Origin: Candidatus Saccharimonadota bacterium
GTDB lineage: Bacteria > Patescibacteriota > Microgenomatia > UBA1406 > GWC2-37-13
Direction of reading: 5' to 3'
Assembly (NCBI GenBank): GCA_016700135.1
Contig: CP065004.1
Span: 780,001-812,000 of the forward strand
DNA length: 32,000 bases
This document shows, one piece after another, positions 3,682 through 20,692 of this stretch (positions are counted from its first letter, which is position 1; every line of letters begins with the position of its first letter). Made by a program: the position numbers and the translations under genes. Under the pieces are notes generated by a model. That model searched no databases and was not told the DNA's origin. It saw only the letters and a list, made by a program, of their open reading frames with translations.

Positions 3682-4275
3682 ATGGTAAAACTGAATTCAA
3701 AACAGCTTCGTGATATTCCTGAGACGGAAGCAGACGCGTTTCGGATTGACCTGAAAAGGAACCCTATCTATCTTATTGTCGAAAATGTATACGATACGTA
3801 CAATATCGGCGGTTTATTTCGGCTTGCCGACGGATTGGCTGTAACAAAGCTTTATTTGTGCGGAGAAATGGAAACTCCACCGCATCATAAGATTGAGAAA
3901 GCTTCAGTTGGGACGTATAAAATTGTTCCTTGGGAGTATAAGGAATCGGCGATTGAAGCTATTGAAGAACTAAGAGCTAAGTATCCAGTCATCCCGACCA
4001 GAGCGGAGGGATCCCTCGACGTTGCTCGGGATGACAAAAAAGGTGTTCAAATACTCGCAGTGGAGCAGTCCGATAACTCAAAAGTATATACAGAGGTGAA
4101 ATATGCGGCACCTGTTGCGCTTATAGTCGGGAATGAAACATTCGGAGTGACGGCAGAGACATTGGCAGCATGTGATCATACTGTTGAAATTCCCATGTGG
4201 GGAATCAATAAATCATTGAATGTCATCGTTTCGGCGGCTATTGTAGCTTTTCATGTGATGGAGAAGATACGCTGA
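3682..4275 (+). CDS. SpoU/TrmH-family RNA 2'-O-methyltransferase
   Basis: NVYDTYNIGGLFRLADGLAV (motif 1), LIVGNETFGVT (motif 2) and EIPMWGINKSLNVIVSAAIVAFHV (motif 3, the knot region). Confidence 0.9.
   Translation: MVKLNSKQLRDIPETEADAFRIDLKRNPIYLIVENVYDTYNIGGLFRLADGLAVTKLYLCGEMETPPHHKIEKASVGTYKIVPWEYKESAIEAIEELRAKYPVIPTRAEGSLDVARDDKKGVQILAVEQSDNSKVYTEVKYAAPVALIVGNETFGVTAETLAACDHTVEIPMWGINKSLNVIVSAAIVAFHVMEKIR
3988..4035. repeat. 48-bp palindromic repeat (fused L/R arms of the GTCATCCCGAC...GGGATGAC family) in frame inside the trmH-like CDS
   Basis: Sequence GTCATCCCGACCAGAGCGGAGGGATCCCTCGACGTTGCTCGGGATGAC. It has 10-bp terminal inverted repeats and a central palindrome GAGGGATCCCTC. Its arms match those at 6365-6393, 6687-6714 and 19999-20067. 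Confidence 0.75.
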
Positions 4276-4424
4276 GCCCGAAGGGGGAATCTCCAGGAGC
4301 CGACGATGGGAATCGAACCCACGACCTTCTTCTTACCAAGAAGATGCTCTACCACTGAGCCACGTCGGCAATCTATGACCTCCCCGCCAGCTGGCGGGGC
4401 GTTCTACCACTGAACCATTCGGGC
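4275..4424 (-). other. split Gly-like tRNA shell enclosing tRNA-Thr (disrupted tRNA or tRNA-like element)
   Basis: 5' piece (4424->4381): GCCCGAA/TG/GTTC-AGTGGTA-GAAC/G plus the perfect 18-nt palindrome CCCCGCCAGCTGGCGGGG plus AGGTC. 3' piece (4294->4275): ..GATTCCCCC/TTCGGGC/T. The acceptor strands GCCCGAA and TTCGGGC are 7/7 complementary. The T arm and anticodon loop are non-canonical. Confidence 0.4.
4298..4369 (-). tRNA. tRNA-Thr (anticodon GGU)
   Basis: Hand-folded cloverleaf: GCCGACG/TG/GCTC-AGTGGTA-GAGC/A/TCTTC-TTGGTAA-GAAGA/AGGTC/GTGGG-TTCGATT-CCCAT/CGTCGGC/T. No CCA is encoded. Confidence 0.9.
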
Positions 4425-4485
4425 ATTGTACTGACTTAAGTCACAATTTTACCATACCGGCACGCTGATTTGATATAGTTAAGGT

Positions 4486-6364: not shown

Positions 6365-6714
6365 GTCATCCCGACCGTTAGTGGAGGGATCCCTTCAATA
6401 TGAAGAATTATTACGTCTACATCATGGCGAGTGGGTCCGGAACCCTGTATATTGGTATGACAAATGATCTTGAACGCCGGGTATATGAACACAAACATAA
6501 CATAATAGAAGGGTTTTCACAGAAATATTCATGTCACAAATTGGTGTATTATGAGCAATATCAGGAAGTGACAGATGCCATAGAGCGGGAGAAACAGCTC
6601 AAAAAATGGCGAAGATCAAAAAAGGAGTTCCTTATAAGTAAACAAAATCCGGCTTGGGTTGATCTGGGACAAGAATGGAAGTAAAAGGGATTCCTCGACG
6701 TTGCTCGGAATGAC
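6365..6714 (+). mobile_element. GIY-YIG ORF bracketed by inverted hairpin arms (candidate selfish unit)
   Basis: L arm GTCATCCCGACCGTTAGTGGAGGGATCCC (6365-6393) ends 6 nt before the ATG. R arm GGGATTCCTCGACGTTGCTCGGAATGAC (6687-6714) starts 2 nt after the TAA. The arms are imperfect reverse complements, and the same arms occur without an ORF elsewhere. Confidence 0.6.
6400..6684 (+). CDS. GIY-YIG nuclease-superfamily protein (small stand-alone type)
   Basis: YYVYIMASGSGTLYIGMTNDLERRVYEH...KLVYYE....A..REKQLKKW is the classic GIY-(x10)-YIG..R..E.N pattern. 94 aa. Confidence 0.9.
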   Translation: MKNYYVYIMASGSGTLYIGMTNDLERRVYEHKHNIIEGFSQKYSCHKLVYYEQYQEVTDAIEREKQLKKWRRSKKEFLISKQNPAWVDLGQEWK

Positions 6715-15008: not shown

Positions 15009-16088
15009 ATGACAGAATCAACAGAATCATCACGAGTCGCAGAAACACTTCTTTTCCAAAACGAGCAGGATTGGCAGGGGAGGACAGTAATCAATCTCAG
15101 CGGGTATAACAGCTGGCAGGTTGAAGCGTTGGGAATCAGAAAATGGATACAGCCTATTCCTGCAGAACGTATGGTTCTTTTTCCTGATATCTCTCCAACG
15201 GAAACCGGACTTATTGTCCCGACGGGCGTGATGGCTGATTTTGATATGGCAAAAGTTCCCGAATGGAGAAAGTTTATCCGGGGTGCCGATATCGGATGTG
15301 GTATGCAGATGAGTACATTACCGCTTAAAGAAGAGGAATTTGTGAAAAATCAGAAAGCTCTCGATGAACTTTATGAACGCTTAGGACGTGAAGGGCTTCT
15401 TCAATGCTTCAGAGGAAATCATTTCATTAACTTTGCAAAAGATATTGACACGGGAAATATGCAGGTACTGGTACATACGGGTTCCTATGGTGATGCACAA
15501 AAGAAACTTTCAGCACTGGTTGATCATCCGGAACAGTATGATGCAGAGTATAAACGCACGATTGAATCAGGAAGAGATACCAGAAACAGAATTATGCATG
15601 TAATCGGGAAAGTGTACGGAGAGGGAGAATCATTTGATACGGTTCACAATACGGTTGAAATGAATGAAAAAACCGGAATTGCCCGTGTATATAAAGGTGT
15701 TGTAGCAGTCAAAAAGGAAGGGGAACGTCAGGTTTTACCCAGTTCATTAAACGGGATAATGGTCGTATATAACACAGGGAAAAAAGCGGAAGAAATCGGA
15801 GGAACATCACACGGCACAGGACGGGCTGTCAGCAGATCGGCAATCCGAAGAACTATAGATGAAATACGGGAACAATACCACGAAAAAGAACAGGACGGCA
15901 GAATTGATCCGAAGCAATTGCATATTATGACCCCGAGCGGTCTCCGCTGGCCGGTAACGGAGATAGATACCGCTTATCATTCTATTGACAGGTCATTAGA
16001 TCTTATGGAAGGAAGCGGGCTTATGAAACATGTTGATCAGCAGTTCCTTCAGCCTATAGCAGGTATAAAAAGTGGTTCGGAAGAGTGA
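15009..16088 (+). CDS. rtcB: RtcB-family RNA 3'-phosphate ligase (compact, divergent)
   Basis: The ordered RtcB signature motifs are present: GADIGCGM, RGNHFINF (GNHF), VLVHTGSYG (HSGSRG-like), VHNTVE (HN), YKGVVAV and SHGTGRAVSR (HGAGR-like). At 359 aa it is shorter than typical RtcB. Confidence 0.8.
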   Translation: MTESTESSRVAETLLFQNEQDWQGRTVINLSGYNSWQVEALGIRKWIQPIPAERMVLFPDISPTETGLIVPTGVMADFDMAKVPEWRKFIRGADIGCGMQMSTLPLKEEEFVKNQKALDELYERLGREGLLQCFRGNHFINFAKDIDTGNMQVLVHTGSYGDAQKKLSALVDHPEQYDAEYKRTIESGRDTRNRIMHVIGKVYGEGESFDTVHNTVEMNEKTGIARVYKGVVAVKKEGERQVLPSSLNGIMVVYNTGKKAEEIGGTSHGTGRAVSRSAIRRTIDEIREQYHEKEQDGRIDPKQLHIMTPSGLRWPVTEIDTAYHSIDRSLDLMEGSGLMKHVDQQFLQPIAGIKSGSEE

Positions 16089-18984: not shown

Positions 18985-19974
18985 TTATTCCAATCCCAAT
19001 ACTTTTCTTCCGTTTACTGTGGCAATTTTCACCAATTCATCAAGATCCATGAAACGGTTTCCGATTGCCATAAGTTTGAGTTCACTCCACATATCGCCGT
19101 CCGTGAAGGGGAGCATGTAGTCGGCGATATTGTCAGATCCGATCGCGACGGTGATACCGTGTTTTACCAACTCGTCAACAGGGGTGAGTGCGTTGTGAAA
19201 AGGCTGAAGATCTTCATGACGCGGAGCATCAATCCAGGCTGTAGGACAGCCGATCATCATGACCTGTGCTTCTCTCAACTTTGCATATACGTTTTTACGA
19301 TACTCCTTCGGATGGGCAGCAAGGGATATAGAGTGCACGGCAACAACCTTTCCCTGCATTCCGTGTTCGATCGTTTTTTCAGCTAACAGTTCGGTTTCTT
19401 TGTCCGACTGAGTGTTGAACTGATCGACATGTACATGAACCATTTTGCCGTGCTTTTTTGCCGTTTCAAGAAGGATATCCATATGTTCAGAGCCTTTTCC
19501 GTGATCACGTTCGTCCCGTTTGGGCAATCCGCCCACGATATCAACGTATTCCATAGCGCGGTCAAACCATTTTCTTGCCTCCGGTTCGATCACTCCTTTT
19601 AAAACCTGATTGATAAGAACGACTGAAATCTGGTCTTTGTACTGTTCTTTTGCGCGGACTGCCGCTTTTGCCGCACGGTCTTCCGCGACGGGATCAATAT
19701 CAATAAATGATCCGACAGCTGTCACTCCCTGACTGATCATCAGTTCAAGAGCCATCGAAATTCGTCGGTAATATTCTTCTTCTGATGCGTTTTTGACCAC
19801 ATCAACCAGATCCCATTTTTCTTCAAGCGTATGTTTTCGATAAATATCAAGACTTTCAGGGGTGATGGTAAAAGCCCGATCGATATGAGCATGAGAGTTT
19901 ACCCAGCCGCCGTTTTTCTTAATTTCTTCGATGAGAAGGTGCTGAAAGTTCCATTGTGGTGCCTGTTGTGACAT
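18985..19974 (-). CDS. amidohydrolase-superfamily deaminase, cytosine-deaminase (CodA)-like
   Basis: VNSHAHIDRAF (HxH), MVHVHVDQ, VVAVHSISL and GSDNIADYMLPFTDGDMW resemble CodA metal and active-site segments. I prefer the start at MSQQAPQ (19974), because the track's 40-aa N-terminal extension merely reads through the repeat at 19999-20067. Confidence 0.75.
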   Translation of the reverse strand: MSQQAPQWNFQHLLIEEIKKNGGWVNSHAHIDRAFTITPESLDIYRKHTLEEKWDLVDVVKNASEEEYYRRISMALELMISQGVTAVGSFIDIDPVAEDRAAKAAVRAKEQYKDQISVVLINQVLKGVIEPEARKWFDRAMEYVDIVGGLPKRDERDHGKGSEHMDILLETAKKHGKMVHVHVDQFNTQSDKETELLAEKTIEHGMQGKVVAVHSISLAAHPKEYRKNVYAKLREAQVMMIGCPTAWIDAPRHEDLQPFHNALTPVDELVKHGITVAIGSDNIADYMLPFTDGDMWSELKLMAIGNRFMDLDELVKIATVNGRKVLGLE

Positions 19975-19998
19975 AGTAGGTTTTGAATAAATAACATT

Positions 19999-20067
19999 GT
20001 CATCCCGACCGTTAGTGGAGGGATCCCTCATGATCAAAAGGGATTTCTCGACTTCGCTCGAAATGAC
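19999..20067. repeat. 69-bp ORF-less hairpin repeat (same family as the GIY-YIG arms)
   Basis: The L arm is 29/29 identical to 6365-6393. A 12-nt spacer TCATGATCAAAA follows. The R arm GGGATTTCTCGACTTCGCTCGAAATGAC matches 6687-6714 at 24/28. It fills the udk-to-deaminase intergenic gap. Confidence 0.8.
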
Positions 20068-20071
20068 AGCT

Positions 20072-20692
20072 CTAAACTGATAATCGCTTTTCAAGCGTGT
20101 GGATCAGGGTTGATACTGCTTTTTCGTTTTTTCCGCCACGCGGGATGATGATATCCGCAAATTCCTTGGTTGGCTCCACGAATTTTTCGTGCATCGGACG
20201 GGCAGTTGCGATATATTGAGCATAGACGGAATCAAGCGTACGCCCGCGTTCTTCAATATCCCTCTTGGCGCGACGCAAAATCCGGATATCCGCCGGTACG
20301 TCTACGTAAATTTTCAGGTTTATAAGGTCACGGAGGAGGGGATTATCAAAAATAAGAATACCCTCAATAAGAATAAGCGGAGCAGGAGAGACAGGTGTTG
20401 TTATATCTGTTTTTCTGGTATGTTGGGTAAAATCGTACTCAGGCACTTCAATAGTATTTCCTTTTTGTAGATCCTGAAGATGAGATATAAAGAGTTCGGT
20501 TTCCAGTGCATCAGGATGATCATAGTTTGTTTTGACACGCTCTTCCATTGATTTAGCTGACTGATCTTTGTAGTACCGGTCATGGGGAATATATACCGCT
20601 CGAGTTTTGAAATGTTCGTAGATTTTTTCGGCGATTGTGGTCTTTCCGGAACCCGTTCCTCCGGCAATTCCGAGAATTAGCTTGTTGTGCAT
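20072..20692 (-). CDS. udk: uridine kinase
   Basis: P-loop GIAGGTGSGKTT, YKDQS, NYDHPDA, EGILIF, R..RD..ERGR. Confidence 0.93.
   Translation of the reverse strand: MHNKLILGIAGGTGSGKTTIAEKIYEHFKTRAVYIPHDRYYKDQSAKSMEERVKTNYDHPDALETELFISHLQDLQKGNTIEVPEYDFTQHTRKTDITTPVSPAPLILIEGILIFDNPLLRDLINLKIYVDVPADIRILRRAKRDIEERGRTLDSVYAQYIATARPMHEKFVEPTKEFADIIIPRGGKNEKAVSTLIHTLEKRLSV

Follow-up and report, generated by a model that had tools for sequence, protein, structure and literature searches.

A tRNA-Thr(GGU) gene nested in the relic of another tRNA-Thr(GGU) gene in a Patescibacteria genome, and its possible link to hairpin-bearing GIY-YIG cassettes

Introduction

Small GIY-YIG nucleases provide the closest described parallels to the arrangement reported here, a complete tRNA gene lying between the halves of another tRNA gene on the minus strand of a 32,000-nucleotide (nt) stretch of contig CP065004.1 (assembly GCA_016700135.1, positions 780,001 to 812,000; Candidatus Saccharimonadota bacterium, Patescibacteriota). 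The whole of this stretch is called the window below and all positions refer to it. The Ssn proteins are single-domain GIY-YIG enzymes that act as site-specific nucleases on single-stranded DNA; they bind and cut hairpin repeats (NTS), are flanked by these repeats and modulate natural transformation (PMC11893778). The published NTS consensus is CGTCATTCCCGCG..GCGGGAATC, and such repeats (NTS/SRM) are associated, for example, with Neisseria SsnA (PMC11893778). The SegB protein of phage T4 is a GIY-YIG homing endonuclease encoded among tRNA genes, which recognises a T-arm motif and promotes the inheritance of itself and of the nearby tRNA genes (PMC2330249).

In the window, the outer halves were identified by comparison with a close relative as remains of the resident tRNA-Thr(GGU) gene, which enclose a foreign allele of the same isoacceptor, and in other genomes such remains adjoin genes for small GIY-YIG proteins. 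These loci resemble the Ssn systems in their small single-domain GIY-YIG proteins (79-94 amino acids, aa), their GC-rich hairpin repeats of 20-50 nt and the repeat copies without open reading frame (ORF) that occur across the genome. They differ in the flanks of the nuclease gene, which are here a working tRNA and a truncated, hairpin-bearing copy of it, whereas tRNA is not mentioned in the Ssn account (PMC11893778); moreover, duplication or replacement of a host gene is not described for Ssn, and the tRNA-linked proteins match UPF0213 structures best. With SegB they share the position of a GIY-YIG gene among tRNA genes, and here breakpoints in the T loop recur and tRNA alleles travel with the nuclease gene. 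SegB, however, is a larger, phage-borne protein that makes no nested or truncated tRNA, whereas the loci described here lie in cellular genomes, are specific to one isoacceptor and retain shells of the former gene.

In fungal mitochondria (e.g., Allomyces atp6), homing-endonuclease ORFs arrive together with a second copy of a portion of the host gene, and the native portion is displaced as a downstream pseudogene; these ORFs have been transferred across species, and GC-rich double-hairpin elements occur in the same genomes. By analogy, a hybrid or replacement functional gene, a nuclease ORF and a displaced native fragment may be recognised in the present loci, although the mitochondrial cases concern organellar protein genes and here a 72-nt tRNA gene, a hairpin-substituted relic and multiple layers are found. 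Further parallels are REP/RAYT, the Rickettsia palindromic elements and miniature palindromic repeats, all of them short, imperfect palindromes that may point either way, may lie in frame within genes and have an ORF-bearing parent element. The hairpins of the window are like them in having a copy in frame in a trmH-like gene, in their two orientations and in their ORF-bearing relative; such palindromes are not known to target the loops of tRNA genes systematically or to be coupled to the delivery of a replacement gene. REP and IS200/IS605 elements are treated together with Ssn in PMC11893778. Finally, the multi-intron, split and permuted tRNAs of archaea (Thermoproteales, Nanoarchaeum, Caldivirga; PMC10714607, PMC4390854) carry interruptions that are spliced at bulge-helix-bulge motifs to give functional tRNAs; as in the present loci, the D, anticodon and T loops are interrupted, by sequences that behave like mobile elements. 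In contrast, the case reported here comes from a bacterium, lacks a bulge-helix-bulge, has exons that cannot make a tRNA and is interrupted by a complete tRNA of the same identity. Neither nested tRNA genes nor tRNA-linked GIY-YIG cassettes were found to have been described for these bacteria in the searchable literature.

Results

Structure of the tRNA-Thr nest

The nest lies next to a gene for a SpoU/TrmH-like protein (ORF 3682-4275, Pfam PF00588). An exact-sequence look-up of this protein gave no match. Its relatives place the window in Candidatus Roizmanbacteria (Patescibacteria/candidate phyla radiation) and led to 80 syntenic loci, one per species and numbered here with L, of which 55 hold a tRNA-Thr(GGU) gene. 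The closest relative, L039 (Candidatus Roizmanbacteria), has a TrmH identity of 83%, flanks nearly identical to those of the window and, between them, an ordinary intact tRNA-Thr(GGU) gene (GCCCGAATGGTTCAGTGGTAGAACGCATTCTTGGTAAGAATGAGGTCGGGGGTTCGATTCCCCCTTCGGGCTC). Aligned with this locus, the nest (152 nt, 4273-4424, minus strand) and its upstream border consist of the following parts:

4426-4434, minus strand: 9-nt insertion TCAGTACAA relative to L039 in the alignment, just upstream of the outer relic, making a TACAAT hexamer
4418-4424, minus strand: acceptor 5' strand GCCCGAA of the outer (resident) tRNA-Thr relic, the same in the intact tRNA-Thr(GGU) at the syntenic site of L039
4400-4417, minus strand: positions 8-26 of the outer relic, namely TG (4417-4416), D arm GTTC AGTGGTA GAAC (4415-4401) and G26 (4400); together with the acceptor strand 25 of 25 positions as in L039
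4382-4399, either strand: perfect 18-nt palindrome CCCCGCCAGCTGGCGGGG, a foreign hairpin module in place of the resident 17-nt anticodon arm CATTCTTGGTAAGAATG
4377-4381, minus strand: AGGTC at the variable-loop position, for which resident and donor origin are indistinguishable
4370-4376, minus strand: linker ATAGATT, at the place of the resident GGGGGTTCG (T-stem 5' strand and first T-loop bases) in the L039 alignment
4296-4369, minus strand: inner intact tRNA-Thr(GGU), acceptor GCCGACG/CGTCGGC, with encoded CC (ARAGORN; Rfam, 73 bits)
4291-4295, minus strand: junction TGGAG, like the conserved right end (..GGAG or ..GGAGG) of T-loop insertions in the relics of other genomes
4276-4290, minus strand: 3' part of the outer relic, with T-loop ATT, T-stem 3' strand CCCCC and acceptor 3' strand TTCGGGC; 17 of 17 positions as in L039, counting the next two bases
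4273-4275, minus strand: discriminator T and CA of the outer relic, coinciding with the TGA stop of the convergent SpoU/TrmH-like gene, an overlap also present in L039

The outer pieces GCCCGAATGGTTCAGTGGTAGAACG and ATTCCCCCTTCGGGCTC equal the tRNA-Thr(GGU) of L039 at 42 of 42 scored positions, and AGGTC and one more flanking base agree as well. Between these pieces, the anticodon arm of the resident gene has been exchanged for the unrelated palindrome, and its GGGGGTTCG for ATAG, the inner tRNA and CCTGGAG. The D arm of the shell was also found in the tRNA-Thr(GGU) genes of L001, L010, L013 and L056. Because all 42 positions equal those of L039, the comparison shows the shell to be the broken remains of the resident tRNA-Thr(GGU) gene and not a Gly-like tRNA. 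Judged from its sequence, the resemblance of the shell to a tRNA is far beyond chance.

A preliminary description of this locus had listed on the minus strand GCCCGAA, TG, the D arm, the palindrome, AGGTC, the tRNA-Thr and the distal T loop, T stem and acceptor strand, and all these elements were located. Likewise read in the sequence were the acceptor strands (4418-4424 and in the relic 3' part) that are complementary at 7/7 positions, the direct repeat AGATT on both sides of the inner tRNA, the missing outer T-stem 5' strand and the overlap of the outer 3' end with the trmH-like stop codon (T-C-A at 4275-4273 is the reverse complement of TGA). The description of a complete tRNA between the halves of another tRNA gene, whose shell is degraded (anticodon arm replaced, T-stem 5' strand absent), is thus borne out at 4273-4424. 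Three of its interpretations had to be given up. The shell, labelled Gly-like, has the anticodon identity of the inner tRNA according to the syntenic gene of L039. The palindrome, taken for the shell's own anticodon arm with an odd loop, is a foreign hairpin that recurs at the same position beside GIY-YIG genes elsewhere. A partial CC(A) tail, proposed as an insertion-site feature, is uninformative, many ordinary tRNA-Thr genes of the clade ending in CTC, CTCC or CTCCA.

Across the 32 kb, ARAGORN and Rfam predicted no tRNA genes other than the two for Thr(GGU) (4296-4369) and Leu(CAA) (11855-11938). The inner Thr gene passes as a bacterial tRNA (RF00005, 73 bits against a gathering score of 29; called Thr(GGU) by ARAGORN) and is presumably the working gene. 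The outer shell, with no anticodon arm and its T-stem 5' strand gone, was detected neither by ARAGORN, with introns on or off, nor by Rfam. The overlap of the shell with the stop codon appears ancestral, since L039 has the same overlap. The core of the palindrome, CCGCCAGCTGGCGG, occurs once in the window (0.05 expected). A role of the palindrome as an intrinsic terminator was ruled out, as there is no T run on either strand. A simple sigma-70 promoter scan called no site near the nest, including the region of the 9-nt insertion. In the predicted fold of the nest transcript, the inner cloverleaf is enclosed by an outer leader-trailer helix; such a modelled helix follows from the sequence and is no evidence of function.

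Origin of the inner allele

The inner tRNA-Thr is identical at 71 of 72 positions to the inner tRNA of L009 and at only 61 of 72 to the resident type. L009 has a TrmH identity of only 65%, and its inner tRNA is nested in the D arm of its own relic, unlike that of the window; in the L009 relic, too, a hairpin (7-bp stem, 4-nt loop) stands in for the anticodon arm. By these identities, the inner gene is shown to be a foreign allele of the same isoacceptor.

Exchange of alleles was also seen where no nest exists. The loci L004 (6497-6769) and L008 (10481-10753) have flanks that are ~97% identical, whereas their tRNA-Thr(GGU) alleles differ at ~17 positions, including compensatory changes in stems. 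On this alignment, the pair is a clean allele replacement that left no relic. Since the two loci share their flanks yet differ in the allele, tRNA-Thr alleles are evidently exchanged horizontally at the trmH locus, some swaps being clean and others leaving shells. The core explanation of the nest as a relic plus a foreign replacement is considered nearly certain.

Two other routes were set aside. Retro-insertion of a mature tRNA was considered for L009, whose inner tRNA has CCA between ATTT repeats, but the inner allele is foreign and encoded CC or CCA is common. Single-anchor homology-facilitated illegitimate recombination was rejected for the window, neither of whose junctions lies inside a long homologous tract. 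As a separate observation, tRNA-Thr(GGU) lies on the strand of trmH in L001, L002, L004, L008 and L031 and on the opposite strand in the window, L039, L003, L009 and L010; beside trmH, it behaves like an invertible cassette.

GIY-YIG nuclease genes with tRNA relics

In L034, the intact tRNA-Thr(GGU) gene is followed directly by a 79-aa GIY-YIG ORF (PF01541, E = 2.5e-17, residues 1-67, no other domain), and this ORF directly by a relic of tRNA-Thr, beginning in the D arm. The anticodon arm of this relic is the palindrome CCCCGCCATGGCGGGG, nearly that of the window. A large protein collection was searched with the L034 ORF, and 11 homologous clusters were followed up, with DNA context for all but P0036. 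Five clusters from independent assemblies (P0003, P0006, P0009, P0011 and P0012) are 68-73% identical to the L034 protein. Together with L034 they make up six related clusters of ~80-aa single-domain proteins, in all of which the ATG lies 0-4 nt past the end of an intact tRNA-Thr(GGU) gene and the stop codon TAG lies within the D arm of the relic (..GTAGTTTAG|TGGTAAAAC). The D arm with the TAG is followed by an A, by CCCCGCC(AT/AC/TT)GGCGGGG as anticodon arm, and by variable loop, T arm and acceptor 3' strand. Hairpins with the same stem, at the same tRNA position and beside a GIY-YIG ORF, were found in L034, L201-L208 and L214. These comparisons show the hairpin in the place of the anticodon arm to be a conserved part of the nuclease-bearing cassettes.

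Several of these loci are layered. L202 has a second, older 3' relic behind the first, and L205-L208 and L214 form complete onions, with 5' relics upstream (some with the same hairpin at the anticodon position), 3' relics downstream and outermost halves that pair with each other. L214 was shortened in silico by 307 nt, which took away the ORF, positions 8-56 of the relic and the greater part of the T-loop insert; what is left can be aligned over its full length with window positions 4424-4273. The shared order is 5' relic, hairpin, variable loop, spacer, tRNA ending in CTCC, GGAG, ATTCCC.. and acceptor 3' strand, and the alignment takes in both the hairpin and the junction CTCC-GGAG-ATTCC.

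Other isoacceptors are involved as well. The P0010 ORF follows an intact tRNA-Gly(CCC) gene and continues through a relic of this tRNA (31 nt, 100% identical). The P0032 ORF has a hairpin-bearing 5' relic of tRNA-Glu(UUC) on one side and an intact tRNA-Glu gene on the other, with its stop codon in the D loop of the latter, and the P0030 ORF lies between a probable Ser-like 5' fragment with a CCCCGCC...GGCGGGG hairpin and an intact tRNA-Ser(GGA) gene. Two clusters at 60% identity have no tRNA directly adjoining. In all, 9 of the 11 nuclease clusters with DNA context adjoin a tRNA gene. Nuclease ORFs adjoin tRNA genes in L034, L201-L214, L237, L239 and L240, and none is present in the nest of the window. 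Recurrence was thus shown with at least two isoacceptors, Thr(GGU) and Leu(CAA), and, where the nuclease gene is present, also with Gly(CCC), Glu(UUC) and, probably, Ser(GGA). Among solved structures, the tRNA-linked ORFs come nearest to those of the UPF0213 proteins 1zg2 (E = 2e-6) and 1ywl (E = 9e-6), and they have a weak similarity to SLX1.

Two overlaps were noted in passing. At L239 (701-1027), the called GIY-YIG protein is extended across the tRNA-Gly relic (..RGRRFESGPPLS..), and at L240 (701-1014), the last 25 nt of the GIY-YIG ORF overlap the 5' part of an apparently functional tRNA-Glu(UUC) gene.

Recurrence of nested tRNA genes

The window holds a second nest:

11787-11971, minus strand: Leu(CAA) in Leu(CAA), with resident halves at 11971-11952 and 11840-11787 and a foreign tRNA-Leu(CAA) at 11938-11855

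Its inner gene is held between the clamps CCCACC-GAAATAT and CATATTTTA-GGCGGG, and its outer pieces are identical to the tRNA-Leu(CAA) of L001 at 19 of 20 and 52 of 52 positions. By these matches, the outer shell is identified as the resident tRNA-Leu(CAA), in the same design as the Thr nest, in agreement with the preliminary description, which had treated both as the same kind of arrangement.

Among the 55 species loci, relics of tRNA-Thr lie around or beside the intact tRNA-Thr(GGU) gene in 10 (L009, L015, L020, L033, L034, L043, L046, L053, L065 and L079). A scan of metagenomes with TAGTTTAGTGGCCC gave L091, L165 and L181 as real cases among the matches listed, nearly all others being due to chance. 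The recurring mechanism proposed in the preliminary description is accordingly supported by a pattern found in many related genomes. Its distribution is patchy: L039 has neither nest, the ORF is present in 1 of the 55 species loci and relics in 10, and the foreign inner allele stands between native ends. In every case, the inner and the outer anticodon are the same; the tRNA-His genes at the same loci have no relics.

Breakpoints recur in the D loop after AGTGG, in the anticodon arm, and in the T loop after GTTC or GTTCGA and before ATTC, and they are filled by GC-clamped hairpins of 16-64 nt. Because most shells have no anticodon and some have decayed stems (in L065, the outer T stem), they cannot be functional tRNAs, and the shell of the window is a dead relic, neither an intron-bearing nor a split tRNA. 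L015 and L033 are the only shells with complete exons. In these two (L015, 11317-11397; L033, 6343-6406), the anticodon loop of the outer tRNA-Thr is interrupted by an insertion with an 11-bp terminal inverted repeat (TCCCAGAAGTA/TACTTCTGGGA), which holds a hairpin that covaries between both species and a conserved 23-mer, ACTTCGGGATCCCGTAGTTCTAA.

A relic array of a different type was observed at L043 (10698-10800), where the 3' end of tRNA-Thr (CCCGCTTCGGGCTC) occurs three times in tandem, each time followed by a spacer of ~40 nt that contains a hairpin. The core of the window palindrome also recurs as TCCGCCAGCTGGCGGA at L061 (12931-12944), right after tRNA-Leu(CAA), and at L036 (1326-1339), in a GC-rich intergenic stretch after ..CTCGAA.

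Hairpin repeats and an Ssn-like element in the window

Two further features of the window carry hairpin repeats:

6365-6714, plus strand: single-domain GIY-YIG ORF (6400-6684, 94 aa; PF01541, E = 7e-15) between inverted repeats of ~30 nt (6365-6395 and 6685-6714)
3988-4035, plus strand: 48-nt inverted hairpin pair without ORF (GTCATCCCGACC..GGGATCCC..TCGGGATGAC), in frame inside the TrmH-like gene and matching the flanks of the GIY-YIG element

The only domain found in the 94-aa ORF is PF01541, at residues 3-75. The repeats of this element read GTCATCCCGACCGTTAGTGGAGGGATCCCTT on one side and AAGGGATTCCTCGACGTTGCTCGGAATGAC on the other and belong to the same hairpin family as the trmH copy. The element has the hairpin-ssnA-hairpin layout of the Ssn systems, and its repeat GTCAT(C/T)CC...GG(G/A)ATC resembles the NTS consensus; as is usual for Ssn flanking repeats, further copies were found, at 3988-4035 and at 19999. 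The pair at 3988-4035, at a distance of 240 nt from the nest, has no counterpart in L039 and L001. Compared with the proteins of these two, the TrmH-like protein of the window has 18 additional aa, counting adjacent diverged residues (..YPVIPTRAEGSLDVARDDKKG..), and it presumably tolerates the inserted repeat. From these copies, the GIY-YIG elements of this genome are shown to leave ORF-less palindromes behind.

The hairpin modules are common to D-loop, T-loop and intergenic copies in either orientation, and L015 and L091 have the same 36-nt D-loop hairpin (100% identity). The hairpins act as DNA-level palindromic repeats, because the identical hairpins of L015 and L091 lie in opposite orientations relative to the tRNA. 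Present at several sites and in both orientations and related to an ORF-bearing element, they have the properties of miniature palindromic repeats.

The GIY-YIG element lies between a gene for an MBL-fold hydrolase and dnaB. A solo copy of the same repeat (GTCATCCCGACCGTTAGTGGAGGGATCCCTC, 19999-20028) lies near the boundary of the minus-strand ORFs 18985-20094 and 20072-20692. Elsewhere in the window, positions 12001-16000 have a G+C content of ~0.51 (~0.43 elsewhere) and hold a 694-aa ORF (12791-14875) rich in Pro-Thr repeats; the region may have been acquired horizontally or encode a compositionally odd surface protein.

Discussion

The explanation that we favour, with a probability of about 0.6, is that the nest is what remains, after loss of the nuclease gene, of a GIY-YIG/hairpin cassette that invades tRNA genes. 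A full cassette consists of a complete tRNA, a gene for a GIY-YIG protein of ~80 aa starting where that tRNA ends, and a second, truncated version of this tRNA with the CCCCGCC..GGCGGGG anticodon arm. As tRNA-derived sequence flanks the cargo on both sides, the cassette would carry its own, built-in homology arms. Homologous recombination could copy it to the corresponding tRNA gene in other strains or species, either after a break made by the nuclease or during natural transformation and the uptake of single-stranded DNA; by analogy, the link of Ssn to natural transformation and single-stranded DNA would fit such an exchange of tRNA alleles. At the window locus, the resident, single-copy gene was overwritten between D arm and T loop by a foreign hairpin, a linker and a complete tRNA-Thr(GGU). 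The outermost ends of the resident gene would persist as a shell, and repeated rounds would give onion layers. The nuclease would drive the spread. An essential single-copy tRNA gene could be replaced only by a cassette with the same isoacceptor, any other being lethal, and for this reason inner and outer identity would always match. The window copy would once have had the ORF, and deletion of the ORF and of the relic segment after it would have left the 152-nt nest; such a loss is plausible because an ORF-less copy of the GIY-YIG element repeats sits in trmH. The inner tRNA would most likely be transcribed from the upstream region of the old gene and released by normal processing of tRNA ends, the outer pieces serving as leader and trailer.

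Several points weigh against this explanation. The nest of the window contains neither a nuclease ORF nor a recognisable remnant of one, only 5 nt separating the inner tRNA from the outer 3' piece; most relic loci are likewise without the ORF, which stands beside tRNA-Thr only in L034 among the 55 species loci. A donor of the exact block of hairpin, AGGTCATAGATT and GCCGACG-type tRNA was not found. The tRNA-linked nuclease is nearest to UPF0213, a family of unknown function, is at most a candidate member of the characterised Ssn subfamily (cd10448) and contains no DNA-binding domain, so that its cleavage of tRNA genes would be hypothetical. The intact tRNA of the cassette would also have to escape a nuclease that targets tRNA-Thr genes. 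The 5' relic, native positions 1-26 fused to the hairpin, would require a donor with such a relic, as L206 and L214 have, or a second event, and the T-loop junction motif GGAG is just 4-5 nt long.

A broader claim, which we advance tentatively and hold somewhat less probable than its contrary, is that Patescibacteria harbour an undescribed class of selfish elements, minimal single-domain GIY-YIG cassettes that are each dedicated to one isoacceptor and overwrite essential tRNA genes across species. In such a class, the CCCCGCC..GGCGGGG hairpin would be the recognition or immunity element of the nuclease. More generally, the conserved hairpin stem could serve recognition, immunity or transcript stability.

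The best surviving alternative accepts the relic and the foreign replacement and dispenses with a nuclease cassette. Foreign DNA with a tRNA-Thr gene would have been taken up and inserted into the resident gene by illegitimate or microhomology-mediated recombination, hairpin repeats of the genome's palindromic family would have landed later and independently in the redundant copy, and the nucleases would be passengers at tRNA and hairpin sites. The absence of the ORF from the window nest and most relic loci speaks for it, as do the short repeats at the junctions (AGATT at both junctions of the window, ATTT in L009), the hairpins in both orientations, between genes and inside coding genes, as expected of independent mobile repeats, and the clean swap of L004/L008 without relic or nuclease. 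It does not account, however, for a same-stem hairpin at the same tRNA position in every nuclease cassette although the nucleases have diverged to ~70% identity, nor for the colinearity of the window nest with an ORF-deleted cassette. Moreover, the breakpoints cluster at the same D-loop and T-loop positions instead of at random microhomologies, and 9 of 11 nuclease clusters with DNA context adjoin a tRNA gene. We regard this alternative as rather unlikely.

An integrase-mediated insertion of an island or phage into tRNA-Thr, bringing its own tRNA copy and followed by a near-total deletion that left att-like fragments, is improbable. Although tRNA genes are classic integration sites, and the tandem tRNA-Thr 3' ends of L043 and the 3' remnants after tRNA-Leu in L006 and L013 would suit such an event, none of the nests has integrase or island genes in its neighbourhood, the relics comprise not only duplicated 3' ends but also 5' halves and internally replaced stretches, and the breakpoints are hairpin-filled and lie in loops, around an insert of just ~90 nt. 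In scans of viral contigs, the inner tRNA had no match, the pattern of D arm plus hairpin had 13 matches that were judged to be chance, and the 18-nt palindrome had 4 matches, whose contexts were not read.

Even less credible is a design at the RNA level, in which the outer tRNA (or tRNA-like RNA) would be functional, either intron-containing or split, and the inner tRNA would lie in an intervening sequence that is removed. Insertions in the D, anticodon and T loops recall the non-canonical introns of archaea, the remaining outer stems are perfectly complementary, the predicted fold keeps the outer acceptor helix, and the outer genes of L015 and L033 would become perfect tRNA-Thr genes if their insertions, with the covarying hairpin, were removed. 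In the window, however, no excision yields a tRNA, the shell having no anticodon and no T-stem 5' strand; most other shells lack the anticodon arm, and removal of the insert restores no tRNA in L009, L046, L065 and L079 either. No bulge-helix-bulge (3-nt bulges, 4-bp helix) was seen by eye, the junctions abutting helix ends, and those of L015 and L033 face each other across a symmetric-type 4x3-nt internal loop beside an 11-bp helix. The same hairpin in both orientations and the decayed outer T stem of L065 also argue against a role in RNA. Permissive Rfam scans of the nests of the window and of L015 returned the inner tRNA only and no intron, ribozyme or group I intron family, and the inserts (~90-170 nt including the 72-nt tRNA) are shorter than the at least 200 nt of a group I intron. 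ARAGORN, allowing introns of up to 300 nt at a lowered threshold, called no outer tRNA at the Thr nest and only a spurious antisense one at the Leu nest.

A chance resemblance or a decayed tRNA-Gly pseudogene beside tRNA-Thr can practically be dismissed, for although GTTCAGTGGTAGAAC-type D arms are also found in tRNA-Gly genes of many bacteria, the shell matches the tRNA-Thr(GGU) of L039 at 42/42 positions and shares its D arm with those of L001, L010, L013 and L056.

For genome annotation, it follows that tRNA finders report the inner gene only, that a shell may pass for an intron, a split tRNA or a pseudogene, and that nuclease ORFs run into tRNA relics and even into working tRNA genes. For the biology of these bacteria, the nests show a route by which an essential single-copy tRNA gene can be invaded: the invader supplies a working copy, and the host survives and then depends on the incoming allele. 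This explains why tRNA-Thr alleles are out of step with species relationships, so that very close relatives differ. It extends the recently described biology of the Ssn hairpin nucleases to tRNA genes and to Patescibacteria, and it offers testable targets, tRNA genes and a defined hairpin, for very abundant tiny GIY-YIG proteins without a known role. If the proposed cassettes are real, the nested onion relics and the fast turnover of tRNA alleles would result from their spread, and the uncharacterised UPF0213-type GIY-YIG proteins would have their first biological role.

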